Shown one piece after another: positions 1 through 34,714 of a DNA stretch of 64,000 nucleotides. Numbering within the stretch: the stretch's first letter is position 1; each line of letters begins with the position of its first letter. This DNA comes from Cyanophora paradoxa CCMP329 (lineage: Eukaryota > Plantae > Glaucophyta). The stretch spans positions 124,001 through 188,000 of the forward strand of contig QPMI01000470.1 of the NCBI GenBank assembly GCA_004431415.1, written 5' to 3'. The notes under the pieces are model-generated. The model saw only the letters and a program-made list of their open reading frames with translations, was not told where the DNA came from and did not search any database. The translations under genes were made by a program, and so were the position numbers.

Positions 1-733
1 GGGTTGTTGCACCAAGACTGAAAGTTGTGATATTTTGACCAACATGGGCAAGGGTTCCATCTGTAAAGTTTCCAAGACCATCATCAGCAGTTGCATCAAC
101 AGTTCCAACAGCAGTTGTGAGTTCACGACCACCATAGGAAGTTTCGACATAACCCTTGTCAGCATCCTTAAACCAAACAGTAACAACCATTTCACCAGAT
201 AAAGCACCAAGGGGAAGGTAGTGATTGAGCCAAGGCACTGGGATTTCAACGAAAAATGAGCCACCAAGTCGGTTGGTTCCATGAGCAGGGATACCATGAA
301 CCATGCCCATTGATCGTTTCTTTTTAGCTAGTTGATCCTCCGAATAATAGACCAGGGGGAAATGAGCAAGGAAATCAGAGGGAATGTGGTAGGTGTAAGA
401 TCCATAGGTAATTTCAAGTCGCTGAACTAAAGCACCAACTGGGCGAGTGTATCCATTGCGAACAAGGTCCGTATCACCAGCAAAAGTGATGGCTGGAAGG
501 TCGAAAGCAAGTTCGAGTTTTCCACAGAAATTGTAGCGAGGTAGCTTGAAGGAAATGCGATTTCCAACATTATTCTCAAAAGTATTGCTGGGATTCACAA
601 CAACTAGAACTGGCTTAGACTTGGATTCGAGACCAAGCATAAGGGAGTTATCCAGGAAAAAGGCTTTCGCCTCCTCTGGGGTTGTTAGGGCTTCTTTCAG
701 CGAAAGTCTTTGAAGAGTGGAAGTGATATCCAT
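1..733 (-). CDS. Major capsid protein, double jelly-roll, N-terminal ~244 aa (runs off the window)
   Basis: Manual translation from ATG at 733 is open to the window edge: MDITSTLQRL...NRISFKLPRYNFCGKLELAFDLPAI...LVQRLEITYGSYTYHIPSDFL...FFVEIPVPWLNHYLPLGAL. These blocks follow the order and pattern of the NCLDV/PLV MCP N-terminal jelly roll (ISRxGDL..YL.V.LP; LI..VE..IGG; LYIPL.FW..LPL.AL). The gene is adjacent to pentons. Confidence 0.8.
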   Translation of the reverse strand, partial: MDITSTLQRLSLKEALTTPEEAKAFFLDNSLMLGLESKSKPVLVVVNPSNTFENNVGNRISFKLPRYNFCGKLELAFDLPAITFAGDTDLVRNGYTRPVGALVQRLEITYGSYTYHIPSDFLAHFPLVYYSEDQLAKKKRSMGMVHGIPAHGTNRLGGSFFVEIPVPWLNHYLPLGALSGEMVVTVWFKDADKGYVETSYGGRELTTAVGTVDATADDGLGNFTDGTLAHVGQNITTFSLGATT

Positions 734-786
734 TATATTCTCTTTTATTATACTGCAACATAAAAAATCTACCAATGATCCTTAAT

Positions 787-1818
787 TTATGCGAAGCTTG
801 TAATAACTGGATAGGAAGGGTGAAGCTGTGACATTCGCATCTTAAAGTATTCATAAACTGGGTCCCCAGCTGGCTCATCACCATAGCGAATTTCAAAGGT
901 AAGATGAACAGGTTGACCCTCAAAATCAATTGGTTCATTAATAGCATTTACAATATCAACCGAGAAAGTGGATAATCCAACCTTTTTGTTATAGTATTTA
1001 TAAAGTGGATGAGCCTCTGTCGAATTGTAAACTACATGCTCACCATAATCTTTGTCAGGGACCACTATTTTATGGAAGTAACCAGTCAGAAGACCATCCC
1101 CACATTGCACCAGATCACCCAGCTCCTTTACTCTCACAAACAAAACACTGTCCCTGGTCTTCTCAGGCTCAAAAGAAGATAGAATACCGTTTACTCGAGT
1201 CCCAGTAAAGATACCATCAGTGAGAGCATCATAAACTTGTGATTGGATTGAGGAATTGCCATATCTTCCAGGATCAAGACCAAGCAGTCTCCCTGAACTC
1301 AATAGCTTTTGAATTGTTTGCAGGTTTGGATTTACAGCAAGTGAGAAAGCCAGGTAAAAAGGTTTTTCGGAATGGAATACTATTCGTTTCAGTGACTCAT
1401 CCCATTTGCAGCGAAGAGATGGTTTAGGATTTTTTAAATCGAACTTTTCATTAATAACATTCACCAGTTGTTGGTGGCTTTGAATGGGGGCTTTGCGACT
1501 TATAATGATTTGTTTCCACTGTTCAAAGTCCTCAGCTGGGCGAACTGTGGGGATACCATCAATTCCAGCTCCTGCATATTGTTCAGAATAGTAAATACTA
1601 AATGAATTGTCGATTGTTACATCTCCAACTTTGGTTTCACCACTCACCATAGGGATGCTGTTATAAAATTCGGCTGATACCAGTCTCACAGCCCTCACAT
1701 TCTCATAAGAACTTGGGAGTCTAGCCACAAAGCTTGATGTGGGACCATCACCAGAGATTGTATTAAATGAGCTAACCTCAATGTAATCCACAGGCATTCT
1801 TCTTTTATCTATATTCAT
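787..1818 (-). CDS. Minor capsid (penton-like) protein 1
   Basis: N-terminal 'FVARLPSSYENVRAVRLVSAEFYN' and C-terminal 'LSTFSVDIVNAINEPIDFEGQPVHLTFEI' match the penton single jelly-roll pattern (LP..Y.NV...RL.S.E; L..G..IDF.G....FEI). Confidence 0.75.
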   Translation of the reverse strand: MNIDKRRMPVDYIEVSSFNTISGDGPTSSFVARLPSSYENVRAVRLVSAEFYNSIPMVSGETKVGDVTIDNSFSIYYSEQYAGAGIDGIPTVRPAEDFEQWKQIIISRKAPIQSHQQLVNVINEKFDLKNPKPSLRCKWDESLKRIVFHSEKPFYLAFSLAVNPNLQTIQKLLSSGRLLGLDPGRYGNSSIQSQVYDALTDGIFTGTRVNGILSSFEPEKTRDSVLFVRVKELGDLVQCGDGLLTGYFHKIVVPDKDYGEHVVYNSTEAHPLYKYYNKKVGLSTFSVDIVNAINEPIDFEGQPVHLTFEIRYGDEPAGDPVYEYFKMRMSQLHPSYPVITSFA

Positions 1819-1826
1819 ATATTAAA

Positions 1827-2759
1827 ATGAACCGGCTTGTTAATATTGATAGCAGGGATAGAAGCCAAGGACAAAATGAAAACTCTTACAGGGTCACCCT
1901 CACAACTCCAGTAGAGAGACCAAGAGAATGCAGGGTTCTTTATGCAGAGATTCCAAACAGTATCTATAACAGTGTGGGAACTGATCATATAACAGTTGAT
2001 TTTAACTACCAAGATGGTTCATACAATGAAATCATCACACAGAAAGTGTATCCCCTTCCCAGTGGCTACATTAACCAGGGTCATTTTGGGGTCACACATC
2101 CCTATAATTATGGGCTGAACTATTCAAGCTTCAAAACCATTGCAGATAAAACTGTGTTTTTTGAGTTCAAAATATTCTACAATCCAACTACCTATAAAGT
2201 GGAGTTTTACAGTAACCATGAGTTCCGTTTTATTGCAAGCAACAAGCGAATAGGGAAGCTTTTGGGTGTAAGTTCTACTGAATACACCACTGGGTATTAT
2301 AGCACTCCTCCTGTTGGTGGATCTCCATATCGACCTGAGAACCTTTTAAAGTATGATGGCAAACCTATTACACCTGATCACCCAGCATGGGGAATCACCT
2401 TCTCAGGACCCAGACTCTCCTCAAAGCCCTTGCAGTATTATTTCACCAGTAATAAGATGTCTGATATGAATGCTGAGCAGTATCTGTACATGCATATTAA
2501 AGAGCTTGCCCCCTTTGCAAGTAGACACAATATAATTCCGAAATCGCAACCACAAAACCAGGGAGCTATCCTTAGATTACAATTGAGTAAAGATATAGGT
2601 GGCTATGTTTACCATAGTGGTGAACATGCAGAATTTATTCAAATCAATGACAGAAACCTGGTGATAAGGGAACTCACTGTGGAGTTTAAAGATTACTTTG
2701 GTGAACTGATTGATATGAATGGAATCGATAATTCGTTTCAGTTGGAGTTTATCGAATAA
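1827..2759 (+). CDS. Minor capsid (penton-like) protein 2
   Basis: Motifs 'NIDSRDR', 'RVLYAEIPNS', 'YLYMHIKEL' and 'LTVEFKDYFGELIDMNGIDNSFQLEF' are typical of NCLDV-type penton proteins. Confidence 0.8.
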   Translation: MNRLVNIDSRDRSQGQNENSYRVTLTTPVERPRECRVLYAEIPNSIYNSVGTDHITVDFNYQDGSYNEIITQKVYPLPSGYINQGHFGVTHPYNYGLNYSSFKTIADKTVFFEFKIFYNPTTYKVEFYSNHEFRFIASNKRIGKLLGVSSTEYTTGYYSTPPVGGSPYRPENLLKYDGKPITPDHPAWGITFSGPRLSSKPLQYYFTSNKMSDMNAEQYLYMHIKELAPFASRHNIIPKSQPQNQGAILRLQLSKDIGGYVYHSGEHAEFIQINDRNLVIRELTVEFKDYFGELIDMNGIDNSFQLEFIE

Positions 2760-4304
2760 AGGCACCTGTGAAATCAACTCTCATTGTGGGAGCATTCACA
2801 TACACAAGGGGATAAATGCGAATATATTTGATTCTGAGAGAATAACCTATGTAAAAAGCATCCTTGATGCTGAGAGGAAATCCACTCAATAGAGCCACAT
2901 CACCAGAGTTGTGAGCATTGTTAATGTTCTCACAGACATATATTTTGTTTTGCCCATCTGATCGAATAAAAGACCAGTTGATCCCATCAGTGGATGTTGC
3001 CACATTGAAAGTCTTAATAAAAGCATTTGTTTCCCCTGATCCATAGGCAATCACAGATGAGAGTTCAAAAGTATATGGAAAAGCAACTTGAAGGTATTCA
3101 GTGGGAGTTTCCCATATTTGTTCAGGAGCATAGGCTCCAGCTTCCCAGCCAAATGCTGAAGGTCTTGCCATGAAAGGCTCTTTACCTGTCACAGAGGATG
3201 AGGCAGTAAAGGCATCATCTGCAAGCTGATACCAATTAGCATCTAAAGGAGGTGACTCTGTGAGAGTGGATGAGATGTAAGCCTTTGTAGGGTTCTTTAG
3301 TTCATAGTTTGCTACTAGAAGACTGCAAAGCTTATTAATCATATCATTGTTTGCTGCTATGTATGTTTCAGTGAATGCTAGCATATCTGGGATCTTAGAT
3401 GTGTCATCCAGAGAGCTTACAATGTGATTTGGAAGAGGGACTGATAGCCTATAGTATCTTCCATAATCCTGATCATAGTTGTAGGGTAACAACTCCTCCA
3501 TCTTATCAAGGGCAGAAAGCTCACTTGCAGCCATGAGCATGTTAATCAATGGGCTTCCATCTGTTGAGGCAATCCATGAGAGAATTCCCCAGCTGTTCAC
3601 AGTCTCATAAGCATAACCCACATAATCAGACTCTAAATGTGGGTCCACCTCACCACAAGAGATGCTTATTACTATAATATCATCATCATCACTGTAAATC
3701 TTCTTTGCATGGCTGTAACCACACACACTGGGATTATTGTTTCCCGAAATGGCACCATCAATGAGACAGACAAATACCCCCTGATTGAAATCAACAATGC
3801 TTACAGGAGAGAAATATGTAGGAGCAGCAGAAGTAGCCCTAGCAGCAATCTTACAAGGCAGAAAGCTGTAATTGTTATCATTTGTGATAAATATTGGTTT
3901 CATATTCTGAGTATCAAAGGATGTAATCACAATGTCCTTTAAGGAATCCTGTATTAGTGATTCACCAGTAACTGAATTGATTGCAGTTTCCAAGGGTCCC
4001 ACATCATATTTTGTATTAAAAAGGGCATTTTCGATGATATTTCGAGGATTTGCGAAAATCAAGGGCAGTTGAGTTAGGTAAATATTGTGTAAATCGTTTG
4101 CTGTCAGTTTAGGTTCACCTGGTTTATCAGGATGCCTTATATTCAAACCTATTGCAATGATCCCACCAGTGGAAGTTCCACTCACAAGATCCACAAGATC
4201 GATTATTCTCCTGCCAGTTCGATTTTCGATTTCTTTGAGCAGCCTGGTTATGATAATGCCCCTTGCACCTCCCCTGACAAACTGAGAACTACTTTGAGAG
4301 GCAT
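2749..4304 (-). CDS. Patatin-like phospholipase fused to a C-terminal F5/8 type C (discoidin) domain; apparent 1-nt frameshift near 4271-4274
   Basis: Patatin motifs GTSTG (GxSxG), ATSAAPTYF and IDGA are present. The C-terminus 'EYLQVAF...STDGINW...YIRIYP...MRVDFTG' is F5/8C-like. The likely ATG is at 4304 (MPLKVVLSLS); adding one G to the G4 run restores SGGGARGII in frame with the 481-aa ORF. Confidence 0.85.
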
Positions 4305-4345
4305 CTTTTACTTATCAGGAATTTTATAAATCCATATAGTAAAAG
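4305..4345. promoter_or_regulatory. Putative bidirectional viral promoter with two inverted AGTAAAAG boxes
   Basis: AGTAAAAG lies directly before the patatin ATG (minus strand) and 2 nt before the fibre ATG (plus strand, 4338-4345). The same octamer occurs at 9869-9876 before ORF 9882. Confidence 0.45.
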
Positions 4346-4347
4346 CC

Positions 4348-7185
4348 ATGAGCTTCAATTACCCACCCAATCTAGAAACCATTCAAGATGATAATGCAAG
4401 CAGCACCAAGCATGTGAACTTTGATAATATTAAAGTAAAGGGTTCAGTTTCGATTGACCACAGTTCCGATAATTCATCCAAGACTCAATCAAGGGAGCAT
4501 GCTTTATCTGTGAATCAAACCGATCCAGATAAGGAGGAAGTCAGTGTAGCTTTTAGCTTGGGTAATGTGAAAGCAAACCAAGTGGCAGAGATCAAAGCAA
4601 CAAGAAGGAGACCTAGGAAACTAAAAACCAGTGGCACTCATCCAGATATACCTTCCAGGTTTGACAGTGGTCGTTTGGTTTTCAATGTTCAAGATGAGCA
4701 GGGCAAACAGAACACAGGTTTGCGAATTTACAATGAGGGCAGCATTGCAAAAGCTGAGGTCCCCCAAGTATTGCAAGTGGGTCCCATTGCCAATACAAAT
4801 CAGGTCTCCTACACAAATGATGTCTACCCCAAGGATATTACATATGACTTTGCGAGGAATGAGCCTTTTGGGTTCTTTACTCCAAAAGATGTCCATCAAA
4901 AAAAGCCATCAATTACAATCAACAGTAGCCCCAGTCAACCAGTAGCAATCCATTTACATCCTGATCTTGTTGAAATGGATAGGCACCTTTTGCCTTTGTA
5001 TAGCAATGTGAAAGACCTTGGAATTCGAACCAGGCAATGGCGAAATATCCATGGCAGCAATGTGTATGCAAATGGTGAGAAGCTTGTAAGTGAGAAGACC
5101 ATAAGAGAGATCTTTGAGTATTATGGACCTGTCCCAGTTCCCTTCCCTCTTCCATGGGATCCACCGGATTTAACACCGAAAAAGCAGCCTGGAAGAGAAT
5201 ACACAGCAACTGAAGATGTAGCCTTTGGGCAGCATATTGTTAGTTGGGAGCAAGTTCGCAATAAACCTATAATTGAACCAAGAAAGCAAATAGATGAGCA
5301 GTATTTACCTCCTGAAGTCGACATATTAGAGCTTGATGAATATCAATTCGTTCCAGATGAGGAGGAGTATTTACCAGATGGTTTTGACCCACAAGAATAT
5401 GAATATGATCAGTTTGACCCCAATGAGGAGGAGATACTACCAGATGGCTTAGATCCACAAGAGTTTGAGTATGAGCAGAACTATGAACCTGATGAGGAGT
5501 ATTTGCCAGATGGTCATGATCCACCAGCTGTTGACTATGAGCAACCTTATGAACCCCATGAGGAACTATTACCAGATGGATTTCGACCTGAGATCTGGGA
5601 GTTCTTTCCTGATTATGAACAAATTAATAATAAACCTGCAAAGTATCCCCCAGAGGATCACAACCATGATTGGGATGAAATCTTAGGCAAACCAGAGAAA
5701 TTCCCACCAGAGGATCACAGGCATGACTGGGGTGATCTGGATGGGATACCAGATAAGTTTGCAGCAAGCAACCATGAACACACCTGGGATGAGATCAATG
5801 ACCAACCAGAATTCGCAAAAGTAGAGCCTCTTGCTACTCTGGGAGTTTCTCTTTACCAGACTTGCAATGTCCCTGAAAGGATCTTTTTGAATCACCACTA
5901 TGTTCATGTGGAAGGGACACTTGCAAATTCAGCTATGATAGGACCATTGCATATTAGAACATTACCAGGCTCTTATAATCCACCACCAGAACCAGGAGCA
6001 ACCATACCAAATATCTTTGTGTCAAGCTACATGGAGGTTGACATACCCATAGATACTTTTAGAGTTCCAACAGACCCAGCAACCTACCAAAATTACAATG
6101 CAGCTATACAGGTTCATGTTGCAGATGTGAGCAGTCTGGATGGATCAAGACCAATGATAGTTTTCAGTCGAGATAAATACTCCTACATTCCCATAGTGGG
6201 AACTGCAAATGATAATTATGGAAGGGCAGAACTTGCATGGATAAAAACGAATTATGGTGGGGTTCTGGAAGCTAATCAAAGAATGGCTGCAAAAAACATT
6301 CACAACGAAAATATATCGAGAGTGGTAACAGAAGATTATTTAGAAGATCAAGGATATATTGACGAAGGAGAACTAACGAATATTCTTTCTTTATTCGTGA
6401 TTAAAAATGATACAAACCTTACAGTCACAAGTAACATTTACACCAGTAACATTTCAGCAAGTAACATTTGGACAAGTAACCTATGGGCAAGTAATATATG
6501 GACAAGTAATATTTACGGAAGTAATTTAGAGGTTGACTACTTGACTGTGAATATTGAAGCAAACCTACCAAATCATCCTACTTCTAATGTTGTTTTGGAT
6601 TGGATTGATAACCACACACACACAAAAGATGAGATCACAGATTTTGCACATGATCATTTATGGGAGCATATAACAAATCCCCCCTCAACCTTCCCGCCCA
6701 GTTCACACACTCATGACTACTCAGAGATCACAAACTCTAATCACAGACACATTTGGAGTGAAATAGATGAACAGCCAGTATTCGCACAATTGAATGCAAT
6801 CGGAAACGTTTTTAATGGAGTCACACTTTACCAATCGATTAATACACCTGAAAGGCTATTTTTGAATGATCATTATGTTAGTCTCAATGGTTCATTTACA
6901 GGTCAAGAAGGCACACCGATGGTGGGAACTCTTGCAGTAAGATTACCCAGGGATCCAATTGTAAATGGAGTTTATGATGGCGATTTTAATGTAGGAGTAA
7001 ATGACACTTTCCCCAGTATCTATGTTACAAATTATCACCCAGGTGAAACAGGACAAGTAGCCGATTTTTCAGCAGCGATACAAGTAAATGTAACAGATCA
7101 AAGTGCATATGATGGAGCAAGACCTAAAATTGTGTTCACAAGGTGTTTGGTTGGAGTCGCCAGAGAGCAACCGATAATGATGTAG
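4348..7185 (+). CDS. Virion fibre protein, N-terminal part (acidic 22-aa repeats, H-x-H-x-W phage-tail-like repeats, duplicated ~135-aa domain)
   Basis: Five E-E-(Y/I/L)-L-P-D-G-like repeats; seven HxHx(W/K/Y)xxI/L repeats; TSNI repeats; two copies of 'GVxLYQ..N.PER.FLN.HYV...AAIQV.V.D.S..DG.RP.IVF.R'. Confidence 0.7.
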   Translation: MSFNYPPNLETIQDDNASSTKHVNFDNIKVKGSVSIDHSSDNSSKTQSREHALSVNQTDPDKEEVSVAFSLGNVKANQVAEIKATRRRPRKLKTSGTHPDIPSRFDSGRLVFNVQDEQGKQNTGLRIYNEGSIAKAEVPQVLQVGPIANTNQVSYTNDVYPKDITYDFARNEPFGFFTPKDVHQKKPSITINSSPSQPVAIHLHPDLVEMDRHLLPLYSNVKDLGIRTRQWRNIHGSNVYANGEKLVSEKTIREIFEYYGPVPVPFPLPWDPPDLTPKKQPGREYTATEDVAFGQHIVSWEQVRNKPIIEPRKQIDEQYLPPEVDILELDEYQFVPDEEEYLPDGFDPQEYEYDQFDPNEEEILPDGLDPQEFEYEQNYEPDEEYLPDGHDPPAVDYEQPYEPHEELLPDGFRPEIWEFFPDYEQINNKPAKYPPEDHNHDWDEILGKPEKFPPEDHRHDWGDLDGIPDKFAASNHEHTWDEINDQPEFAKVEPLATLGVSLYQTCNVPERIFLNHHYVHVEGTLANSAMIGPLHIRTLPGSYNPPPEPGATIPNIFVSSYMEVDIPIDTFRVPTDPATYQNYNAAIQVHVADVSSLDGSRPMIVFSRDKYSYIPIVGTANDNYGRAELAWIKTNYGGVLEANQRMAAKNIHNENISRVVTEDYLEDQGYIDEGELTNILSLFVIKNDTNLTVTSNIYTSNISASNIWTSNLWASNIWTSNIYGSNLEVDYLTVNIEANLPNHPTSNVVLDWIDNHTHTKDEITDFAHDHLWEHITNPPSTFPPSSHTHDYSEITNSNHRHIWSEIDEQPVFAQLNAIGNVFNGVTLYQSINTPERLFLNDHYVSLNGSFTGQEGTPMVGTLAVRLPRDPIVNGVYDGDFNVGVNDTFPSIYVTNYHPGETGQVADFSAAIQVNVTDQSAYDGARPKIVFTRCLVGVAREQPIMM

Positions 7186-9530
7186 GATTAATTCATTATG
7201 ATAATATCGCTTTTAATCCTGTCGGCAAATATTCCGATTTTGATGTGGTGAGTGGTTGGAATAGCACAGGTGTAGCATTCCCAGCCGGAGGTTGGACAAC
7301 AGGATGGAAACCCACAACAGATAACCCAGTGGAAGGTTTTTATAGCAACCAGACAGATGATGAAAGTGGTAGTGGGTATATGCAATGTCAAGTGCCGGCA
7401 GGAATGAAAACATGTCACATACAATACTTATGTTGGACGAATGGGCGATATTTTGATATTAACGGATACCGAAATGGTCGATGGAATTATATTATGAGAG
7501 TGAATACGTATCAAAATGTTCAAAACACAGCCGACACAGCTTGGCATTCGAGTTTATTATGGACATCCGTATTTTGTGGGAGTTGTTCATATATTGGAAT
7601 TTTCGCAAAAAAAGGACGAATTCATATCGGAATGCTTGGATGGACAAAAGAAGTAGGTAGAACAGCGCCAGCTAATGGTTTGATAAGTTGGGATAACGTA
7701 TATAGCAAACCATCATTTTACTCAGCCGCAGACCTTCCACAAACAGCAACATGGGCTGTCTCCACTTGGTTAAAATCAACGGATAATGTCCCACGATTTT
7801 GGTTTGGAAATGGTGGAACTACATATATTCGAGGTTATGAGCATAGTGATGGTGTATCTGTCGAATTCAGAAACTCAGCAGATGCATGGCTATTAAGATC
7901 GTATTCAAATGGTAACCTTGCAGTTAACAATACTTTGACAGTTCCGACCATAAGTGCAACAACCATAGATGTTGCAACATTAAAAAGAAATGGTTATGAA
8001 ATTCCAAAATTCTACGCTTTTGATGACACAGTAGCAGGTGGTGCTTATCATTCAACAAATGGTAATTGGATAATTGGTAATGGGTGGCAATGGGATCCAG
8101 GATATAATTACGGAAGTTATGCCCTCAACAATGAATACGATGATCAAGTAACAACTACATCTTGGATTCAATACACAATTCCCACAGCATTGGTTAATGG
8201 GACAGCATTTCTCACTCATTTACCATGGAATACTTCCCGTTACTTTGAGATTTGGGGAGTCCGTAGTAATGGAAACATAGTATTTATTACAAGAGTAAAC
8301 AATTATCAACCACATAACAGCTATCCAGATAATTACCACGACGGAGTTAATAATGTCCCAATCTTCCTTGCCGGTCGATTTACTCACCTCCGTATTTATC
8401 CGAGAGTCGGAAGAGTTCATATTATGGGAATAGGTTTTACGCATGATCGAGCTAATAGTAGTTCATATGGTGGTCACACAGGGTTTATTTCTTGGGATAA
8501 CATTTATAGTAAGCCAAATCTACTAACTCCGAGTTTAGTGGGAAACATTACAGGTTTTGATACTTGGAGTGGGACGGGTAGTGGCGGTTTATCGTTTAGC
8601 GGGTCTTGGGGAACAGGTTGGACGGCTTCTGTTTCTAATCCTGTGGATGGATTTTATAGCACTATTGAAGGTGATACAACCAGCTCTGATTGGGCGCAAA
8701 TTGAAGTTCCCGCAAATATGCAAACATGTCACGTTCAATATTTGTGTTGGACGAATTGTAGATATTTCGATATTGGAGGTTATCGATCAGGTAGATGGTT
8801 CCACATTATGCGAGTTAATACTTACCAGGCTATCTCAAATTATGCATCCACAGATTATCACGATGGATTGGCGTGGGCTTCTTTTGCTTGTGATTATTTC
8901 ACACATGTAAGATTTGTTGCAAGGAAAGGGCGATGTTATATTGGAATGGTTGGATGGACGAAAGAAAAAGGGAGAACCTCACCAGCAAATGGTATGATCA
9001 GTTGGGATAATGTTTATAGTAAACCACTCACTACCACATGGACAGAAGACAATTGGATTGCCCCAATAGGAAGTTCACTCAGTCGTTTTTATTTTGGTTC
9101 AGCGGGAACAACTTACATAAGAGGTCATGCAGCAACAGTTGTAGAATTTAGAAATGCATCAGACACAAACATAGCATATATTGAACAGAGTGGATACATG
9201 TATATTGCGGCGTATTTGACACAAGGAAGCGATAGAAGATACAAAACCGATATTAAAAAGATAACCGGCGCTCTTTCAGCAATTGAGAAATTAGAAGGAG
9301 TAAGTTTTAAACGAATTGGAAGCGAAAAAGATGGAACGAAATTAGGTTTAATTGCGCAAGATGTAGAAAAGGTAATACCAGAGGTTGTTAATAAAAAATA
9401 TGATAATGGCTACCTATCTCTCGAATATACGGGTTTGGTTCCAGTTCTCATAGAAGCTGTTAAAGAATTATCTAAGAAATGCAAAGATCTGCAAAGTCAA
9501 ATAGACCAAATTAAAAATGTCACAGTATAA
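7143..9530 (+). CDS. Virion fibre protein, C-terminal part, with three ~150-aa repeat modules and a peptidase S74 intramolecular chaperone domain
   Basis: The C-terminus 'SDRRYKTDI...GLIAQDVEKVIPEVV...LEYTGLVPVLIEAVKEL' plus coiled coil is the S74 chaperone signature. Three modules each end in 'G.ISWDN.YSKP'. There is no ATG at the frame start, so this is probably the same gene as 4348-7185. Confidence 0.85.
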   Translation: MFGWSRQRATDNDVGLIHYDNIAFNPVGKYSDFDVVSGWNSTGVAFPAGGWTTGWKPTTDNPVEGFYSNQTDDESGSGYMQCQVPAGMKTCHIQYLCWTNGRYFDINGYRNGRWNYIMRVNTYQNVQNTADTAWHSSLLWTSVFCGSCSYIGIFAKKGRIHIGMLGWTKEVGRTAPANGLISWDNVYSKPSFYSAADLPQTATWAVSTWLKSTDNVPRFWFGNGGTTYIRGYEHSDGVSVEFRNSADAWLLRSYSNGNLAVNNTLTVPTISATTIDVATLKRNGYEIPKFYAFDDTVAGGAYHSTNGNWIIGNGWQWDPGYNYGSYALNNEYDDQVTTTSWIQYTIPTALVNGTAFLTHLPWNTSRYFEIWGVRSNGNIVFITRVNNYQPHNSYPDNYHDGVNNVPIFLAGRFTHLRIYPRVGRVHIMGIGFTHDRANSSSYGGHTGFISWDNIYSKPNLLTPSLVGNITGFDTWSGTGSGGLSFSGSWGTGWTASVSNPVDGFYSTIEGDTTSSDWAQIEVPANMQTCHVQYLCWTNCRYFDIGGYRSGRWFHIMRVNTYQAISNYASTDYHDGLAWASFACDYFTHVRFVARKGRCYIGMVGWTKEKGRTSPANGMISWDNVYSKPLTTTWTEDNWIAPIGSSLSRFYFGSAGTTYIRGHAATVVEFRNASDTNIAYIEQSGYMYIAAYLTQGSDRRYKTDIKKITGALSAIEKLEGVSFKRIGSEKDGTKLGLIAQDVEKVIPEVVNKKYDNGYLSLEYTGLVPVLIEAVKELSKKCKDLQSQIDQIKNVTV

Positions 9531-9533
9531 TAA

Positions 9534-9842
9534 ATGGCGACCTATCCACTCGGTGGAACTCCTTCTACTTCTTCTGAGCCTGTCGCTCTTGCTTTTGATA
9601 CTATCAAACTTGTAGCCGCACTACAAACTGTCGAAAAAACGATACAACAAACTAACAAACTGTCACCGGTTGTTCATGAATATAAAAACCTCTTGGTTAA
9701 TGTACTTGCGCAATCGGCTTATGGTGACCCAGTAACAAAATATGGTGAATGTGATTCTAACCTCAAAGCGATGACATCCAACATCCAATGTCTAACAACC
9801 GCTTACCAATCTCTTGGATCCAATCTAATTGCTTTGGCTTGA
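9534..9842 (+). CDS. Hypothetical viral protein (102 aa, likely helical)
   Basis: Clean ATG ORF 3 nt after the fibre stop, in TAAATG context; no recognisable motif. Confidence 0.6.
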   Translation: MATYPLGGTPSTSSEPVALAFDTIKLVAALQTVEKTIQQTNKLSPVVHEYKNLLVNVLAQSAYGDPVTKYGECDSNLKAMTSNIQCLTTAYQSLGSNLIALA

Positions 9843-9881
9843 ATGGTGTTTATTTTTCTTTCCTTCTAAGTAAAAGAAGCA

Positions 9882-10736
9882 ATGGGTGAATATAATCGAG
9901 TCCAACTTCCCATATATTCCCTTGGATCCCCAGCAATGCACTTTCGCCAGCATGAAGTGAATGATGAAGTTCGTGGTTTAGAATCCACAGAGAGACCCAA
10001 TTCCAATGGTAACTCCTTTGATAAAAATTCGATTATTCGAGTTAAAGAACTGAGAGCTGATAAGAATTCTGGTGTAGTCAAAACCACTCGACTCCTTGTC
10101 TCAAATGCGAATTTCTTCCAACCTACTAATGGAGGTCCTGATGCTTACAGTGTTGATCTGAAAGCCCTCGATTTCGATAAGAATTCTGCTGCTGTTACTG
10201 TGAGATCAGGAGGAGCATTTATTGGTGGTGGTTGTCGTGTTTCAGGACAACTCTCTTCATCAGTTTCGTATAATGATGTCCCAGATACTCTTGAACAAAA
10301 TGTAGAGAATCCCCAACGAATACGTTTCTATACACCAGTTGCACAGCAACCTTTTCTACATTTCTATGTTGCTTCCTCTGTCACTCTTGAAAATTCGGAA
10401 TTGGTTATTATAACAGGAACTGATCGAGTAAGAAGAAATATTCCGCTTCCCACAGCAATGCTATCTATGTGCAGAGCAAACAACAATCAAACAGGTCATA
10501 ATTACCTATTCTTTGTTCAAGCATCAAACCATTTCGGTCGAGGATATTGTGTTTATAACAATTTGACATTTACCTATGATTTGTTTGTAACTGAGGTTGG
10601 AGTTTACAATACTATGATTATGGGACTGAGGACAGATATAGCAGCTGTTTCGGCACTTCGAGGGGTAAATGTTGCTGATATATTCACAACAGGATTTTAC
10701 ATGGAACCAGATGTGATTGATGACCCAACCCCATAA
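9882..10736 (+). CDS. Putative fibre/spike-like protein, paralog A
   Basis: Clean ORF. Shares 'V.GL.STE...ELR.DKN.G.VKTT.LLV.NANF...SGGA.IG.G.RV.G' with the next ORF. The Gly-rich motif resembles viral fibre shaft repeats. Confidence 0.6.
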   Translation: MGEYNRVQLPIYSLGSPAMHFRQHEVNDEVRGLESTERPNSNGNSFDKNSIIRVKELRADKNSGVVKTTRLLVSNANFFQPTNGGPDAYSVDLKALDFDKNSAAVTVRSGGAFIGGGCRVSGQLSSSVSYNDVPDTLEQNVENPQRIRFYTPVAQQPFLHFYVASSVTLENSELVIITGTDRVRRNIPLPTAMLSMCRANNNQTGHNYLFFVQASNHFGRGYCVYNNLTFTYDLFVTEVGVYNTMIMGLRTDIAAVSALRGVNVADIFTTGFYMEPDVIDDPTP

Positions 10737-10759
10737 AAGATATATCCCTTTAATGTAAA

Positions 10760-11593
10760 ATGGCTGAGCAACCCCCACTTGAACGAATAATTACACCTCA
10801 GCTTTCATTAGCAGCACCTGCAAATCACGTTTTGCAGCATGCTACCTTTGATGATGTAGAAGGTCTCCAATCGACAGAAGTACAACCTACCATGAATACA
10901 TTCGGTTCCACCCATAAACTGAGATTGCAGGAACTCAGGTGTGATAAAAATAATGGTATAGTTAAGACAACGAAACTCCTTGTCACAAATGCAAACTTTT
11001 CTGCTCATTATGGAGACCCAGATAGCTATGGAGATCCTCTGTCTACTTATTCTTTTGAATCTAGGTCGGGAGCTATTAACTGCAAATCGGGGGGAGCTTA
11101 TATTGGTGATGGTCTTAGGGTTGGTGGGGCTGTTGGAGCGCCTCTATTTGTGAATGATCAACCCAATCCCATTGATCCCAACACAAGAATTCGAACCTAT
11201 GTCCCCAGCATGAATGCCCCATACATTATAAAGATATTCCCAATTGTTGTGAATGAACAAACAGCAGTAGTAGACTCTCTTGTTGAAATTGGTGACCACT
11301 ACAAGGTAGTTGTGGATATCCCACCAGATGTTTATGCTGTATGCCAAGTTGAAGGTGGAACTCCCAACTTTGCAGTTGTGATCACCCCATATGACAATTT
11401 CGGAATTGCTTATCATGGAGTCAATTTCGGTTTGGAAGACTATCAGTTTCTTGTGAGAGCCACCAAGTTTGGTATCTACAAGTGTGTGATGTTTGCAGAG
11501 AGAACCGATTTTATTGCAAAGCAGAATACCTATGCTGAATACTATGGGACAAATCGATATTTCCCCATTTTCGGGCAGGATACTGCTCCATAA
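10760..11593 (+). CDS. Putative fibre/spike-like protein, paralog B
   Basis: Tandem paralog of 9882-10736. The C-terminus 'VDIP...VVITP...F.V......VMFAERTD' resembles C-terminal domains of phage tail proteins. Confidence 0.6.
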   Translation: MAEQPPLERIITPQLSLAAPANHVLQHATFDDVEGLQSTEVQPTMNTFGSTHKLRLQELRCDKNNGIVKTTKLLVTNANFSAHYGDPDSYGDPLSTYSFESRSGAINCKSGGAYIGDGLRVGGAVGAPLFVNDQPNPIDPNTRIRTYVPSMNAPYIIKIFPIVVNEQTAVVDSLVEIGDHYKVVVDIPPDVYAVCQVEGGTPNFAVVITPYDNFGIAYHGVNFGLEDYQFLVRATKFGIYKCVMFAERTDFIAKQNTYAEYYGTNRYFPIFGQDTAP

Positions 11594-11615
11594 GAATATT
11601 GGTTATATATAGAGT

Positions 11616-11888
11616 ATGGATAGTAAAACAAAAAAGTTTATTGATGCTGCTATGACAGTCCATGGTAAAGATAAATTCGATTACAGTGAGACACATTACA
11701 TCAAAGCTCAAGAGAAAGTATCTGTTAGATGTTTGCAGTGTAACAAAGTGATCCTTACCTATCCCTTTAATCATGTGAAGGGATCAGGGTGTAGGGAATG
11801 CAACAAAAAGCACTCTCAGGCTTACAGGAAAAGGGCTACTTCATCAATAACAGTGGAATATAGGGATGTTTGCATTAGGTTCGATTAG
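11616..11888 (+). CDS. DUF723-like (homing-endonuclease-associated) Zn-ribbon protein, no nuclease domain
   Basis: 'FIDAAMTVHGKDKFDYSETHYIKAQEKVSVRCLQC...PFNHVKGSGCREC' fits the FI..A..VHG.KYDYS...Y.....KV.I.C...P..H..G.GC..C repeat of phage and giant-virus endonucleases. Confidence 0.7.
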   Translation: MDSKTKKFIDAAMTVHGKDKFDYSETHYIKAQEKVSVRCLQCNKVILTYPFNHVKGSGCRECNKKHSQAYRKRATSSITVEYRDVCIRFD

Positions 11889-11917
11889 GTTTAATTAATT
11901 TTTCTAAGGTATTCTTA

Positions 11918-12316
11918 ATGGAGACTCAATACAGAGGCTTTCATGTTATGCTTGATTACAAGGCTAAATCAGCTATTGCAACAGGAAATGAGCATGTGAG
12001 CTTCCTAGGTAATTGGATTATGGGAACCCTTGAACAAGCAGTATTAAGACAAGGTATTAGGATTGTTCATAAACACTGTGAAATATTTGATGGCAAAGTA
12101 TCACCTCCTGGTTTTGCATTGGTTCTGCTATTAGATGAAAGCCATTGCACAGCTCATTGTTATTCCAATGAAGGCATGTTAGCAATTGATATATTCAGTT
12201 GTGGTAAAGAAGCTCAGCATAAAACACAAGCAGTTGCAGATGAGATCGATAAAACAATGAATTTCCTCACATTTGAGAAGACTGAGAGACATAAACATGA
12301 TAGATTCCCGTTTTGA
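11918..12316 (+). CDS. speD: S-adenosylmethionine decarboxylase proenzyme (short bacterial-type, pyruvoyl-dependent)
   Basis: 'GFHVMLD...PPGFALVLLLDESHCTAHCYSNEGMLAIDIFSCG' contains the ESH autocleavage motif and D.F.CG motif; 132 aa. Confidence 0.88.
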   Translation: METQYRGFHVMLDYKAKSAIATGNEHVSFLGNWIMGTLEQAVLRQGIRIVHKHCEIFDGKVSPPGFALVLLLDESHCTAHCYSNEGMLAIDIFSCGKEAQHKTQAVADEIDKTMNFLTFEKTERHKHDRFPF

Positions 12317-12788
12317 TGAGTTTCTATAATGAGTTTTGAAAGGATTCCTTTGTTTTATAACAATAACATTGATCAGCTATTATTACAACAGGATATAATA
12401 TATCCTTTACCTACAATAGCTTTTTACAATGATTATTTTCCGGATTCCGGTCATTCTTTACGATAGAAATTCTACTGTATGATGTAGCCGAAATATGAAT
12501 GCACCCTACATTAAGCAATGTCAAACTCAGCATCTCCCCTAGATTCCCCCTATTATATAATATTTATATTAAAGTGGACTCAAGGTTGACTCATATTAAT
12601 CGTAAAAGTAGTAATAGTATATGGAATTTGTTACGAATTCAATGCAAGGGTTGACTAAGTGGGTTGAGTTGACTCAAATTTCACAGGAAATAACAATGAA
12701 TCAGAGTTTAAAATGCATTTTTTGAATCAACTACACCAACTAACACTGAGATTTTCACAAAATATGAGGTCCTTACTGAATATGGTAT

Positions 12789-12881
12789 GTGTCACAGGTG
12801 TCACAGGTCTATCCCAAAGTTTTCTATAGCATAAAAATGAACTCTCAAAAGTTTGGGATGGACCTGTGACACCTGTGACAC
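12789..12881. repeat. Palindromic unit 1 with tandem 9-bp iterons
   Basis: GTGTCACAGGTGTCACAGGTC (12789-12809) and its exact reverse complement (12861-12881); the arms extend inward to about 35 bp with 2 mismatches. Confidence 0.9.
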
Positions 12882-12988
12882 TCGATTATTTCATTTGTTT
12901 ATTCAAGTAGAATTACATAGATAAAATTCTTACTTATTGTTACTGAGTTTTTCAATATAAAAGAGGCTCTTACCATAAATGGTGTTGT

Positions 12989-13088
12989 TCACAGGTGTCA
13001 CAGGTCTATCCCAAAGTTTTCATATATATAAAAATCAACTCTCAAAAGTTTGGGATTGACCTGTGACACCTGTGACACCTGTGACACC
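12989..13088. repeat. Palindromic unit 2 (direct copy of unit 1, with three ACCTGTGAC units on the right arm)
   Basis: TCACAGGTGTCACAGGTCTATCCCAAAGTTTT...AAAAGTTTGGGATTGACCTGTGACACCTGTGACACCTGTGACAC. Confidence 0.9.
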
Positions 13089-13328
13089 CAAATTCCTAAG
13101 GGTCCCCCCTTAGACTTATAAAAACATGATAAAAACATATCAATTTCATGTATAATTACGATTGAATTCAATAAGAGATCGATTTGTTTTATTTAACAAA
13201 TGAATCTTTTATGGATCTTAATCGAGTTTAGCGATATGTTTCCGATTAAATGAATTAAATTTAATTACATTTAATCGAGAAAGTACATGAATATAATATC
13301 GATTAAATCAATTAACTTTTAGACCAAT

Positions 13329-13614
13329 CACACATAGTAAAATGCGGAGTTTTAACCAGAGGCAAGATCTAATTGAGATTCAGTTATATTATTCGGAAAT
13401 ATACACAGATTATCGATTAACTCAGTAAGACTAATCGGAAAATAAGAGAAATTTACGATAAAATATCGAAAAGAATACAAAATAATCGAAATAAATGAAT
13501 ATTCGATAAGATATACACAGATTATCGATTGATTGAAATAGAATATACGAGATATATCAACAAAATCAATTAAGATTAAGCCGAGGGTTAAAACTCCGCA
13601 TTTTACTATGTGTG
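13329..13614. repeat. Terminal 29-bp perfect inverted repeat around an AT-rich, imperfectly self-complementary 228-bp spacer
   Basis: CACACATAGTAAAATGCGGAGTTTTAACC (13329-13357) pairs with GGTTAAAACTCCGCATTTTACTATGTGTG (13586-13614). An internal 20-bp direct repeat lies at 13399-13418 and 13511-13530. Confidence 0.93.
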
Positions 13615-16600
13615 CCCGGCGCCCGATCCTCGCGCTCGCGACCAGTCGCGTCAGTCCGGCGCCGACCGTCCTGCTTCGCAGGAAGCCTCGTCATCCTCCG
13701 CCAAGCTCAAGGCGCCGGCGTGCTTCCGGGTGGTCTCGCCCCGCGCTCGTGCTTCCGCATTCGGAACGGATGCCGAGACGGTACCGGCCTCTGGATCTGG
13801 TGGCGGGCGACAGAATCCCACCGGAAAGGATGCGGACGCGGAATCCGCCGATCGCGACGATGCGATCGCGAACGCGAGCGGTGCCCTCTCGCGGGAGGAG
13901 GCGGCGGGCCGGCTGGCGGCTGCCGCCGCGTCGGGCGAGAGCCTCGTGTACGGGCGGCGCGAGGCGAAGGCGCAGCTCGTGGAGCTGCTCGCGGCCGCCC
14001 GCTGCGGCGAGTACCTTCAGGGCGGCGCCGCGAGCGGGCACACGCTCCTGGTCGAGGGCGGACGGGGCTCGGGGAAGAGCACGTTCGGTGAGCGGGCGCC
14101 CGATCGCGAGTTTGAATTTCCTGAATTTCGAGCATCGCCCACCGCAGTGGCGGAGGCGGAGCGGCTGTGCGAGGTCATCGACCTCCCGTTCCTGAGCCTG
14201 CAGCCCGACCCCAAGGAGGTACTCTCGCTGTCAATGTCCCTTGCAGCCGACGCCGGCGCTGACGTCGACGTCATTGTCGGTTTCATTCCGCTTATACGAA
14301 CTTCTATTTGATTTTAATATTTAATTCACAAAGATTCTTATAAGACTTTTTCATTATTGGTATATGACCTAAGGATGGCAGATGCACCCGTACGAGGCCG
14401 TGCGGCTGCTGCTGCGGGGGCTCATGCTGCCCGAGGGCGGAGCCGGCTGCACTCGAGCGCCACCGAGCTCGAGGCGGCTGCGGTGAACGCCGGCGCCGGC
14501 GCGGGCCACTCGCGCACGCAAAGCGTCTCCGAGATCGCTGCGGAAGCCATGGCCAACGCCGACCGACGACGACGGGCGTCGACGTCGGCGGGAATTTCCA
14601 TGGAAGCATGGCTCCAGTCCGCGGGGAGGCGTCGGTCCCGCCCTCGCCGCAGGGTTCGAATTCCGCTGTCGCCGGCCCCGGCGGCGCCGGCGGCGCCGGC
14701 CCCGGCCTTGGCAGCCCGCGGGCTTCGACCGGCTCGGAAACGCGCGCAGTGCGGATCCTCGGACGCAGTCCGAGCTCGGTGGGGAGCCCCAAGAGTCAGG
14801 GCCAGCAGCGCGGCACCGGCAGCCCCCGTACCTCGACGGAAATTCGGCTGTTTCCAGGGCGCAGCGCTAGCCCGGGCCGGGGTAGCCCGCGGCACGGGCT
14901 CGAGGCCCGCGGGGGCTTCTTCTTGAGCTCTTTGTCTCCAGCTGCCATGGCCGGCCGCGGCCTGCCCGGCGGCGATCGCGACCTGCGGCCCGTCGAGTTT
15001 GACACGGAGGACCAGTTGGGCGATTTCGAGCGCGAATGCGGCCCTTCCTCGCAATCCGACGGCAGGGGCATCGAATCGTGGCTGGAGCCGCCCTCGTGCC
15101 GCTCGGCGTCGGCGGAGTCGCCCGCAGGCAGCTCGCCCCGGCCGGCCGCGGGCCAGCCCAGAGCCGCCGCGGGCCCGGGCCCCGCCTCTCGTCCTTCGGC
15201 GACGGCAAGCTATTTATAGACGCCCTCGAGTTTCTGAAGCGCGTGGACATGCCCCTCGCCACCGGACGAAACGCTCAGGCCCGCGAAAGTTTACTTGCGA
15301 AATCCGCAATCGCCTTCGTTTTTGCGCTAATTAATTTCGCAGGTGATCGTTCGGCTCCTGCGCGACGGCATTTTCTTCCCTTCCACAACGTCTGCGGAGG
15401 GCTCGAGCTCGCACTTCCCCCCTGGCCCCGGCTCGAATGCTTCCTCGTCGGCCGCCCGGCGCCGCCGCTCCCTAGCCGCCTACAGCGGCACCGGCGTACC
15501 CTCCCCGGCCGGCAGCGAGAGGCGCGCCTTGGGCGACGCTCGCGCCGCCACCGCTGCGGGCCTCGTCGACTTCCAAATGGCCGACTCCTCGGAGGGGCAC
15601 CGCGTTTTCTCGTTCCTCTGCCGCCTTCTCGAGGTGCTCACCTGAGCCTTGATCTTGAGCCCGCGCCCGCCGGTGCCTTGGAGTGAGCGGGGTGGTGCGC
15701 AGGGGTTGGCGCGGAGCTCCGGAGCGCTCGTCATCGTGGACGGTTAGCCCTGCGCTACGCGCGACGTCGATCGCGACGCCCTGCGCCCGGCACTTTAAAA
15801 TTTGGCTCATCCGGAGCCCTCCCTCGCGGTCGGCCGCAGATTTCTGCGACCTCGACGCCGCCTCGCAGAAGTGCCTCGCCTTCGTCGCCCAGACCGGGTC
15901 CGTTGCCGCGAGCTCGAAGCTTTCATTTCCTTCGAGGCAGCCTTCGCTGAGCGCGGGCAGGCGGGTGTGCGTGCTGGCGACGTCGCGGAAGGTTCCGGCG
16001 AGCACCGTCTCCGTCGAGTTCAACATGCTGCGGCAGAGCCGCCAGACGCGCCGCGTCGAGCTCGCCCCCTGGTCCTCCCTCGGTGAGACTGAGCGGTTTC
16101 GAACCGCCTCCAGCTCCGCGCAGATTCCAACCTTTCCGACCCGGTCCGACCCGGCCCGACCCGCCCGCGCCGCAGACGACGTGGCGGGCTTCGTGAGCTT
16201 CGTGCTGCGGATCGAGAAGGAGAACCTCTCGCCCGTGCTGGCCAGGGCCCTCGCGGAGCGCACGGGCGGGGCGCCGCGCCCGCTCCGCGAGCTCGTCCTT
16301 TTCCTCGTCAAGACGGGCTTCATCGAGCTCGACAACGGCCGGGCACTCGCCTCGGCCGCCCTGCTGAGAACCGCCGCAACGGGCACGGACGCGGAACCGA
16401 ATTCAAGTCGGCCTTCCTCGAGGAGTCACGATCAAACGCGACGCCACTCCGCCATCGTCTTCGAATTTCCATCGATTTCCACGCCGTCATCTCTGTCGTC
16501 GATGTCGGCCGCGGCCGACGGGCCCGGATCCGGATCCGGAAGCGCTATCGCTAGCTACAGCGGCGCCGCCGGCATCGGAGCGCTGATCCTTCCGCTGGCG

Positions 16601-20576: not shown

Positions 20577-20778
20577 ACTTGCTGAATCGCGTCGCTGACC
20601 GCGGGCCGGGCCCCGTCCCCCGCAGGGCCGCTGGCAGGCGCTCTCGGGCTCGCGCGGGGCGGCCCTGCGACTCTACCGGCGGGCGGCCGGCCTCGCGCGG
20701 GACGCGGGGGCCAGGCTCCTCGAGGAGATGGCGGGGGCACGCATACTTCAGTCGACGGGGTCGGCAATTCTTATATAA
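13615..20778 (+). CDS. Host multi-exon STAND-class P-loop ATPase (ADCY10/AAA_16-like), 3' part only; 5' part separated by the viral insertion
   Basis: 'LVYGRREAKAQL...LLVEGGRGSGKST' (Walker A, ~14057-14083); later 'VELAPWS...LAERTGGAPRPLREL' and 'ILSELDRIP..AADALKLASV' fit STAND helical motifs. GT-AG introns are present (e.g. 14088-14147). The end position is tentative. Confidence 0.6.
16891..17088. repeat. Intronic (CTAAG/CTAAA)n pentamer microsatellite
   Basis: Visible tandem ctaag/ctaaa units. Confidence 0.9.
20528..20575. repeat. Poly-C tract (~48 nt)
   Basis: Homopolymer run visible in the sequence. Confidence 0.9.
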
Positions 20779-21774
20779 TTGTATAAAGCGCTCGAGCTCT
20801 CTATATAGCTAGATCTATCTTTCGACATTTCACATGCATTGCCATACATCTAGGTTTACCTTAAGTGTGCTTTTGTACTAGCTTTGTGATTTCTGCATCT
20901 ATCTCATTCACCGAATGTGGAGCCAGGTCTTCTTTAAACAGCTATTCTTATATAATGACGTATACATCATTAATCTCAGAGTCTTGCAGTGTTCTCAGTG
21001 CTTCAAACGCTTTATATTATGTGAGTCGTCGCTCTGCAGCACATGCATATGTATTTAATTTGCAGCACACTCTAACTATATGATTACGTATACATCAGTG
21101 CTTCGAACGCTTTATATTATGTGACGCATGGCTCCGCAGCACACTATACTTGTATTACATACGTATTTAATTTGCAGCATGCGCACACTCTAACTCGGAT
21201 ATATAGTGCTATTGTTGTAGTTCCGCAGCCAGCTGTCTCGTTTCATGATCAATTGCAAGGATTGATCGTAAAAGGAACTAGCATACTCTAGATCTGATTC
21301 GGAGTTGCACTGTGCATCATCGCAGCCCCTGGTACTGAGGCAGCGCTAGCCTGGCAGTGGTCGACCTCAGGCTATAGCTAGGTACACAGACTTCATCGCT
21401 GCGTTTCAAATACCAGCTGGCGTGTTTTAAGGAACAGCGTTTCTATAGACTCTGTACATGTAGACGTTTACGTAGTTTAATGTGTAGTTTATCAGCAAGC
21501 AATCCTATTCCGGGCTTATAAATTTATTATTTGCACGTACGCGTTTGCACGGTTCCGGATCCGATGACCGAGATCGAGGGGGGTTGCAAGGGGGAGGAAA
21601 CCCGAGGCCGGCGCCCCATTTGAGAGAAAAAGAGGCAAGGGAATCGGAAGAAAGATGGGGGAATTAATATTCGAAGAAAGAAAGAGCCCCTCCCTTCCCC
21701 CCCCTCCCTTCCTCCCCCTCTGTCAGTTACTTCCAATATACCATAACTTCCTCTAAGCTTCGAATTCGGTCATC

Positions 21775-33916: not shown

Positions 33917-34714
33917 AGACTACTCAGCTATTGCTCGCGGTCATATCGAAGCGCAGGACTGGAGTTATATGTACGCTAGCGCTACGAACTGGAATCTGTA
34001 ATTTGAATACTAAGTTATAACTTATTACTTATGACGCATGCGGAGTCATTGCGGACACCCGTTAAAAAACTCAGTCTTCACGGGACGGCCGAGCCAAAAA
34101 TCCTCGGTAGTTTGATTGAGGTCAGAAAACTTACCTTAGGGTTGTGTCAACGCATATGAGAACACAGTGTGGCATAACGTAAATTACATCAGAATCACAA
34201 ATTAAATTTTGACTTCAGATTTACAGTTAGGTACCGCGCTTATTCTCGAAAATCTGCTGCGATAACGCCAGACACATTACCCCAAGTGAAACTAAACTCA
34301 AAATGTCAGTACGTTAATTTAATTAAAAAACCGGTTCCAGTTTGGGTTTTAAAGAAATTTAATGCATGCCACATGGATTCGCAGTCGTAGTGCGCGCCAA
34401 ATGCGTGCGGAGTCAACTAGTACTGCGGACGCGATCGTAGTACTACGGTACGTGCACGTGCTCGCAAATTCAAATGATTGAGCCGATCGCGACGTCGCAA
34501 TCGCGAGCCCGGGCCGCGAGTCCCGCGACGTCGACTTTGACTAGGACTCTTTCAGTGAGCTGTCGCCGCAGCCTGTCGGGCAACTTCTATAAAACAAATT
34601 AAAATCGAATCGATCCGATCGACGATCCGGTACCCCTCGGCCTTCGCCAGTACCAGACTTCTACTACCGGATTTTCCTTCACTCAGCCTGGCAGGTTGAC
34701 GTGTCACAGACTCA

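Follow-up and report, generated by a model that had tools for sequence, protein, structure and literature searches.

A virus-derived block at the left end of the window

We analysed a stretch of 64,000 nucleotides from Cyanophora paradoxa CCMP329 (assembly GCA_004431415.1, contig QPMI01000470.1, positions 124,001 to 188,000), hereafter called the window. Positions 1-13613 of the window are the right-hand part of an endogenous double-jelly-roll DNA virus. This part, which ends at about 13613, is densely coding and intron-free, and its GC content is 34-43% over positions 1-13000 against 50-82% past 14000, with a sharp step across 13600 (from 0.30 to 0.67). CpG is depleted in the viral block (0.45) but not in the host part (1.13). 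Eleven open reading frames (ORFs) of the block were examined, and no further copies of them were found in the remainder of the window. Rfam gave no match. For the comparison of copies, at least half of the sampled words were present in 14 of the 24 runs listed, which all bear the same organism label; contigs of four runs were compared with the window over positions 1-16000, and the terminal region was compared over 13500-13760.

Major capsid protein and pentons

The leftmost ORF (2..733, reverse strand) encodes the N-terminal 244 aa of a major capsid protein (MCP) that is cut by the window start. It is 60% identical to a full-length C. paradoxa protein of 456 aa in EukProt (P0001), which is its sole longer relative in the 90% collection. 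An exhaustive search with the MCP returned six matches: P0001, a Logan protein (38%), three ENA proteins (27-30%) and a protein of 3989 aa (P0003), which matched in 28 short stretches and was kept out of the MCP alignments as a likely repeat match. A profile search added no relatives. The MCPs of this family had no Pfam or PHROG match, a sequence search of PDB returned no capsid, and no MCP-related locus was found in viral contigs (IMG/VR) or metagenome contigs. Distant MCP relatives (24-30%; P0004, P0005, P0006 and P0008) come from ENA contigs 1-12 kb in length, and the MCP lineage may therefore reach beyond the Cyanophora host.

P0001 was modelled from an alignment of six sequences (pLDDT 57, pTM 0.62). 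The predicted fold is a double jelly roll, which is one of the features of polinton-like viruses (PLVs) in the broad sense. The best structural match of the model was a capsid chain of PBCV-1 (Z 21.3, rmsd 4.1, 310 residues aligned; Foldseek E 5e-16), and the PBCV-1 and faustovirus chains together gave Z scores of 21.3, 20.7 and 20.3 (rmsd 4.1-4.8, 310-325 aligned). In both Foldseek libraries, MCPs of nucleocytoplasmic large DNA viruses (NCLDVs) were on top. PRD1 gave a Z score of 14.8 and the adenovirus hexon one of 7.0. Mavirus and Sputnik scored 12.8 and 12.3 (rmsd 5.8, 338-352 aligned) against 20-21 for the NCLDV chains, so that the modelled protein does not appear to be of the virophage type, and MCP-VIR hits are tabulated for 0 of 156 glaucophyte elements (PMC12220804, Table S6). 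In the Atlas, 23 of the 30 MCP matches were in sets with Capsid_N or Capsid_NCLDV, carried by a minority of their members (recognition 1773, weak). The lists used for the structural comparison held no named Aquintovirus MCP. According to Tables S2-S3 of Bellas 2023 (PMC10120064), MCPs of red algae, chlorophytes and trichomonads also have their best match in iridovirus, African swine fever virus or PBCV-1. The predicted fold is nearest to NCLDV MCPs and this lean is real, but it is not diagnostic of placement, because polinton MCPs give the same kind of match.

The 310-aa ORF at 1827..2759 (forward strand) is supported as a penton (minor capsid protein) by three weak, concordant signals, namely an IDSRDR motif, a DUF5901 match under the cut-off (E 0.009) and a profile whose only PDB match was PBCV-1 P1 (E 0.055). 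It has two relatives in Logan (56% and 31%). A locus search with the penton profile reduced 22 candidates to one locus (L001, in a 157-kb contig), where a motif match extends over 42 residues; this locus was not used. The neighbouring 343-aa ORF (787..1818, reverse strand) is probably a second penton. Its Atlas score was 0.97 with DUF5901 and viral clusters, at a recognition of 2212, under the tool's mark of 2300, and it showed a weak profile match to the 310-aa penton (P 0.009; hhalign probability 4.7%). It had no Pfam or PDB match.

Fibre, lipase and small genes

Two overlapping frames on the forward strand follow the capsid genes. The first (4348..7185, 945 aa) contains acidic repeats, HxHxW phage-tail repeats and a duplicated module, detected as an internal repeat, and it gave PHROG tail and fibre matches down to E 2e-12. 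The second (7128..9530, an 800-aa frame) contains repeated modules and a C-terminal S74 chaperone domain (E 2.6e-16). The 84 codons ahead of the first ATG of the S74 frame copy a later module (score 297), and therefore the S74 frame likely continues the 945-aa ORF. The two would then be the halves of what is likely a single fibre gene, about 1,700 aa in length and interrupted by a frame break near 7140-7185; loose contig ends gather at 7143 in all four runs. In other copies, fibre modules are skipped or reshuffled, with joints at 5760-6740 (four of four runs), 7213-8718, 7709-9120, 9022-9213 and elsewhere, and the depth of the S74 half is 3-15x below that of the capsid genes. Because of these joints and of the lowered depth, the fibre appears to be the variable part of the family.

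Upstream of the fibre, 2749..4304 (reverse strand) encodes a patatin phospholipase fused to an F5/8 discoidin domain. Both domains were detected by Pfam in a single frame (patatin, E 2.6e-16; discoidin, E 6e-6, slightly under the cut-off), and the GTSTG nucleophile motif is present. No ATG is present in the patatin frame itself and the start is in a different frame, at 4304, which places a frame break near 4272-4285 in the window copy. At 4272, contigs of three of the four runs differ by one letter in length.

Downstream of the fibre, all ORFs are on the forward strand. A small ORF of 102 aa (9534..9842) belongs to no family and gave weak matches only. It is followed by two proteins of no known family, of 284 aa (9882..10736) and 277 aa (10760..11593), which are paralogs of each other (33% over 254 aa, E 4e-41) and without Pfam, PHROG or NCBIfam match; both contain a glycine-rich stretch which we take to be reminiscent of fibre repeats. 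Next comes a zinc-finger piece of 90 aa (11616..11888), of the type attached to homing endonucleases and without a nuclease domain, whose residues 4-72 matched PHROG endonuclease/HNH families at E 6e-9 to 2e-8, with a weak match to DUF4379. The last ORF (11918..12316, 132 aa) is predicted to encode a pyruvoyl decarboxylase of the SpeD family, with a DESH self-cleavage site, an AdoMet_dc match at E 3e-11 and a TIGR03330 match under the cut-off. Among viral SpeD homologs, decarboxylases of SAM, of ornithine and of arginine are all known (PMC9992855), so that the term polyamine enzyme is safe and the term SAM decarboxylase is not. Locus searches found no related locus for SpeD or for the 284/277-aa pair.

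The initial annotation had described a compact AT-rich block abutting GC-rich eukaryotic DNA, with an MCP, two pentons, three fibre-like genes, a patatin-discoidin fusion and a polyamine enzyme. The block is borne out by the GC profile and the step at 13600, the MCP by its identity to P0001, its modelled double jelly roll and an earlier HHpred-confirmed listing (see below), and the polyamine enzyme, as judged from sequence, at the level of the family. The fusion also stands, with both domains in one frame, and is corrected in that the window copy is frame-broken near its start. As for the pentons, the one at 1827-2759 is supported and the one at 787-1818 only probable, while the S74 fibre was rightly recognised and its separation from the 945-aa ORF probably does not hold, since the two likely form one frame-broken gene.

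The end of the element and its insertion site

Between 12317 and 13330 there is no frame of more than 64 codons. Here, a hairpin unit with a 23-nt loop on a stem of 32-35 bp is present twice in direct orientation (12745..13087; copies of 137 bp, 82%; z -13) and is followed by an AT-rich subterminal region with short hairpins (13150..13328; fold z -4.2). The outermost 286 bp (13329..13614) form an imperfect palindrome with perfect arms of 29 bp and an incompletely paired, AT-rich interior (fold z -12.5). Without the arms, the interior gave a fold z of -2.6, and the halves aligned better than in 200 of 200 shuffles. Perfect pairing of the outer 29 bp next to a drifted interior is consistent with selection for pairing at the end. 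In two runs that may be RNA runs (X15 and X20), single contigs carry both arms at the spacing and in the orientation of the window. The terminal motif had no exact match in viral contigs and is present in the window only as its two arms. AT-rich, incompletely paired fold-back ends are found at the termini of poxviruses, asfiviruses and parvoviruses; in contrast to these, the palindrome of the window is known only unfolded, within host DNA.

Copies match the window through 13613 and part company from 13614, so the element ends at 13613 ±1. The structured, hairpin-like terminus proposed earlier is retained, and its boundary moves from 13614 to 13613 (±1). One letter is missing at 13576 in most copies, and an end variant with a changed outer arm was seen in three runs (X2, X3 and X6). 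X20, a run with a second organism label, contains one contig of 406 bp (depth 3.5) that is near-identical to the terminal palindrome (window 13500-13614) and may represent a related species, a mislabel or carry-over.

Each of the four runs gave 3,208-6,556 contigs over positions 1-16000, with about 700-870 varying places, and the contigs show many variants across the viral block and are long and near-identical across the host part. In X6, single terminal contigs reached depths of 4993 and 4308, about 90-105x the 47.5 of the host flank, which corresponds to roughly a hundred element ends. The furthest-reaching high-depth terminal contig of this run ends at 13613, and other GC-rich flanks depart from the viral end at 13615-13623.

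The virus-host junction was located from contigs at 13612..13641, and positions 13612-13614 are common to the empty host site and the viral end. The host contig starts exactly at 13612 in all four runs. In X2 and X6, a contig joins at 13612 with 213 and 219 different GC-rich letters, respectively, and corresponds to the empty form of the site; this flank was not found elsewhere in the window. The depth at 13626-13634 exceeds that of the flank contig by 324 (X2) and 83 (X6), which is more than the flank itself (208 and 47.5), and this surplus beyond the junction indicates, if indirectly, that the flank has another neighbour, on the virus side, in addition to the empty form. The presence of both a filled and an empty form may come from a mixed culture, from heterozygosity or from a duplicated host segment. 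A tyrosine-recombinase model for the two to three shared junction letters was set aside, as tyrosine recombinases are recorded in 0 of the 156 elements and two shared letters are possibly due to chance.

Relation to described elements

The family has a published record, cited here from the text and tables consulted. Table S2 of Bellas 2023 (PMC10120064) contains P0001, letter for letter, as an HHpred-confirmed MCP (98.5% to iridovirus MCP), and the same work holds a 465-aa gene closer to the window MCP; its gene_64235 agrees by eye with the window MCP at about 67 of the latter's first 80 residues. It gives 366 MCP hits for C. paradoxa (272 + 94), amounting to about 7.3% of the genome, and by our own column count both MCP clusters of the species stand in the unnamed block called 'Iterative HMM searches'. 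For the 156 glaucophyte elements, Table S6 of Bulzu 2025 (PMC12220804) gives A32 in 139, rve in 85 and tyrosine recombinase and protease in none; pPolB is listed in 49 and D5-like in 40, and 107 are without a PF03175 match. Accessory genes are lipase (89), AdoMet_dc (66), S74 (37) and HNH_3 (40). Polinton-type MCP hits number 2 and NCLDV penton hits 15, with no PLV penton hit. A cysteine maturation protease, which together with pPolB and rve characterises Polintoviricetes (Mavericks, Gosseviruses), is not visible in the window either. The same paper names a discoidin-patatin fusion for glaucophyte PLVs and reports S74 fibres as ubiquitous in PLVs.

The Cyanophora elements of these two studies (Tables S2 and S4 of Bellas 2023, Table S6 of Bulzu 2025) share the MCP family and the accessory set of the window virus. 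In the portions consulted, the group is neither named nor placed, and its ends, the two pentons and the polymorphic site are without description. No published account of the ends or placement of the family was found in the texts and tables covered, with figures, Zenodo data and preprint supplements outside this scope, and PMC11071308 and 10.1101/809541 held nothing on the Cyanophora virus family.

Similar systems are known from other hosts. Zoravirus VC102, VC134 and VC218, Zephyrvirus and Alpenseevirus (10.64898/2026.06.19.733378) are PLV-sized with an NCLDV-like capsid module, like the window virus; rve is frequent in Zora and VC218, Zephyr has large lipase ORFs, and the main text of that paper, as far as consulted, makes no mention of Cyanophora or glaucophytes. 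The same source reports two pentons in Trimcap B PLVs. Halocafeteria seosinensis virophages and PLV subtype 4 (10.64898/2026.07.28.741278) have terminal palindromes and rve, and hairpin priming was proposed for them. Their palindrome example is 52 nt long, whereas that of the window virus is 286 bp, incompletely paired and accompanied by further inner hairpin repeats, and they differ from it in host and capsid type.

The initial annotation had presented the window virus as uncharacterised, which does not hold, since Bellas 2023 already lists the MCP family in its supplement and Bulzu 2025 tabulates or names the gene set. Its contrasts with PLVs, drawn from the S74 fibre, the second penton and the structured end, are also weak, since S74 is described as ubiquitous in PLVs, Trimcap B has two pentons, and terminal inverted repeats (TIRs) of PLVs and virophages carry palindromes. 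It had further asked whether the virus nests within a described clade with the same gene set: the gene set is in print, in the tables consulted, and a named clade is not. What remains of the earlier proposal is a small integrated jelly-roll virus, NCLDV-like in features of its capsid and ending in a hairpin-like structure, and not a new system. The gene list itself is known; the novelty lies in the end, which is long and incompletely paired and whose terminus is now placed exactly, in the filled and empty site and in a tentatively NCLDV-leaning position.

Proposed life cycle and alternative explanations

Altogether, these results are best read as a multi-copy endogenous virus of PLV type, belonging to a catalogued family, that likely integrates by rve and possibly replicates through fold-back ends, a reading to which we give a probability of about 0.7. 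In such a virus, the rve integrase, which is taken from the family table, would insert new copies at new sites. The element would excise, and its terminal palindrome could fold back as an incompletely paired hairpin and so prime strand synthesis, perhaps assisted by a primase-helicase together with a host or helper polymerase. The subterminal hairpin repeats are putative origins or protein-binding sites. An A32 ATPase, expected from the published family counts, would fill the capsid, with one or two pentons and a long trimeric fibre possibly sitting at its vertices. At entry, the lectin-lipase could bind a surface glycan and breach the membrane, and the decarboxylase might raise polyamines for DNA synthesis or packing. 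The hairpin-priming model as such has already been proposed for palindromic PLV and virophage ends (10.64898/2026.07.28.741278), where priming in poxviruses and parvoviruses is cited as well.

Several points weigh against this reading. The MCP model is only moderate, given its pLDDT and six sequences. Only one end of the element is within the window, and the ATPase, integrase, replicase and second end would lie to its left. PLVs in the broad sense are also marked by TIRs, a length of 15-45 kb and a target-site duplication, features that involve both ends. Because two MCP clusters are combined in the 156-element table, its counts may not describe the subfamily of the window. In addition, pPolB in 49 of these elements offers protein priming as an alternative (PMC12220804). 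None of the contigs listed extends across the junction by 31 letters in both directions. Finally, the window copy has two frame breaks, from decay or possibly assembly error; in such elements, frame breaks are frequently assembly errors (Bellas 2023, PMC10120064).

The alternative that survives best concerns the palindrome, which might have no role in replication and be a by-product of fold-back repair copied with the TIR, the element being replicated by pPolB protein priming as in Polintons. We hold this to be a serious, though less probable, explanation. It agrees with the pPolB count, with the accidental annealing that has been offered for such palindromes (10.64898/2026.07.28.741278) and with the only moderate pairing of the interior (z -2.6), and both arm-spanning contigs are in the orientation of the window, none being inverted. 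It is opposed by the perfect outer arms next to a drifted interior, by the conservation of the element end at high depth and by the 107 of 156 elements that have no PF03175 match (PMC12220804).

A bolder form of the preferred reading, which we consider rather unlikely, is that the virus represents a distinct glaucophyte-infecting lineage of small giant-virus relatives, with an NCLDV-type capsid module (MCP and two pentons), a linear genome whose long, incompletely paired hairpin ends resemble those of poxviruses and asfiviruses, and rve, still mobile in laboratory cultures. If true, a form halfway from protein-primed Polintons to hairpin-ended giant viruses would still be alive today, with hundreds of copies in a host that can be cultured. 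The replication mode of most PLVs and the identity of the small viruses nearest the giant-virus root are both open questions in the field, as far as the literature consulted goes, and here a family that makes up about 7% of the genome by published estimate (PMC10120064) combines a culturable alga with an NCLDV-leaning capsid. With such a host, a terminal palindrome and a filled and an empty site, hairpin priming, mobility and placement are testable with existing assemblies and simple assays.

An integrated Mriyavirus, that is, a dwarf NCLDV relative with HUH rolling-circle replication, was an option of the initial annotation that we regard as improbable. Mriyaviricetes (PMC11253617) have a small genome, an NCLDV-like MCP and sometimes more than one minor capsid gene, and points in favour of this option are the structural ranking of the modelled MCP of the window virus (Z 20-21 for NCLDV chains, 12-13 for virophages and 7 for adenovirus) and the Capsid_N or Capsid_NCLDV sets of 23 of 30 Atlas neighbour matches, again on a minority of members. 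In the family table, moreover, Polinton/PLV MCP models recognise 2 of 156 elements, and NCLDV penton models recognise 15 against none for PLV models (PMC12220804). However, Mriyaviricetes are described with HUH, VLTF2/3, a 12-protein core and no integrase. No HUH, VLTF2/3 or other Mriyavirus core gene was found by Pfam and PHROG among the 11 ORFs within the window, rve is present in 85 of the 156 elements while mriyaviruses lack integration genes, and polinton MCPs of red algae and trichomonads also match iridovirus or PBCV-1 best (PMC10120064).

It is very improbable that the block is a fragment of a giant endogenous virus of hundreds of kb with a hairpin telomere of poxvirus or asfivirus type. 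The NCLDV-like MCP and penton, the AT-rich, incompletely paired end and the occurrence of SpeD in algal giant viruses (PMC9992855) would suit such a fragment, but one precise end recurs at many sites, the structural genes are all within 12 kb, and the published table lists the family under PLV-type elements, carrying rve and A32 (PMC12220804). A chimeric join of contaminant or free viral DNA with host DNA, suggested by the empty form in X2 and X6 and the want of a bridging contig among those listed, is just as unlikely, because the copies are numerous and diverged, the same viral end also occurs with other flanks and the site exists in an empty form, because the host contig breaks exactly at 13612 in four of four runs where the join coincides with the conserved viral end, and because the depth to the right of the junction exceeds that of the flank contig by more than the flank itself; the concern raised earlier that the junction could be an assembly artefact is thereby largely removed.

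The host flank

In the host part, five flank frames gave no family in Pfam. Stretches with a GC content of 41-43% are present at 20700-21450, 33950-34450 and 36950-37450, without matches to viral proteins. A host frame of 393 codons (42014-43195), without a Pfam match, has by eye the look of a claudin-type four-pass membrane protein. Close to the junction, near 14060-14085, the host flank contains a Walker-A-like stretch (GGRGSGKST), also without a Pfam match, and by eye the insertion seems to lie inside a host gene. At the insertion point, the empty form has the look, again by eye, of an exon end followed by an intron donor.

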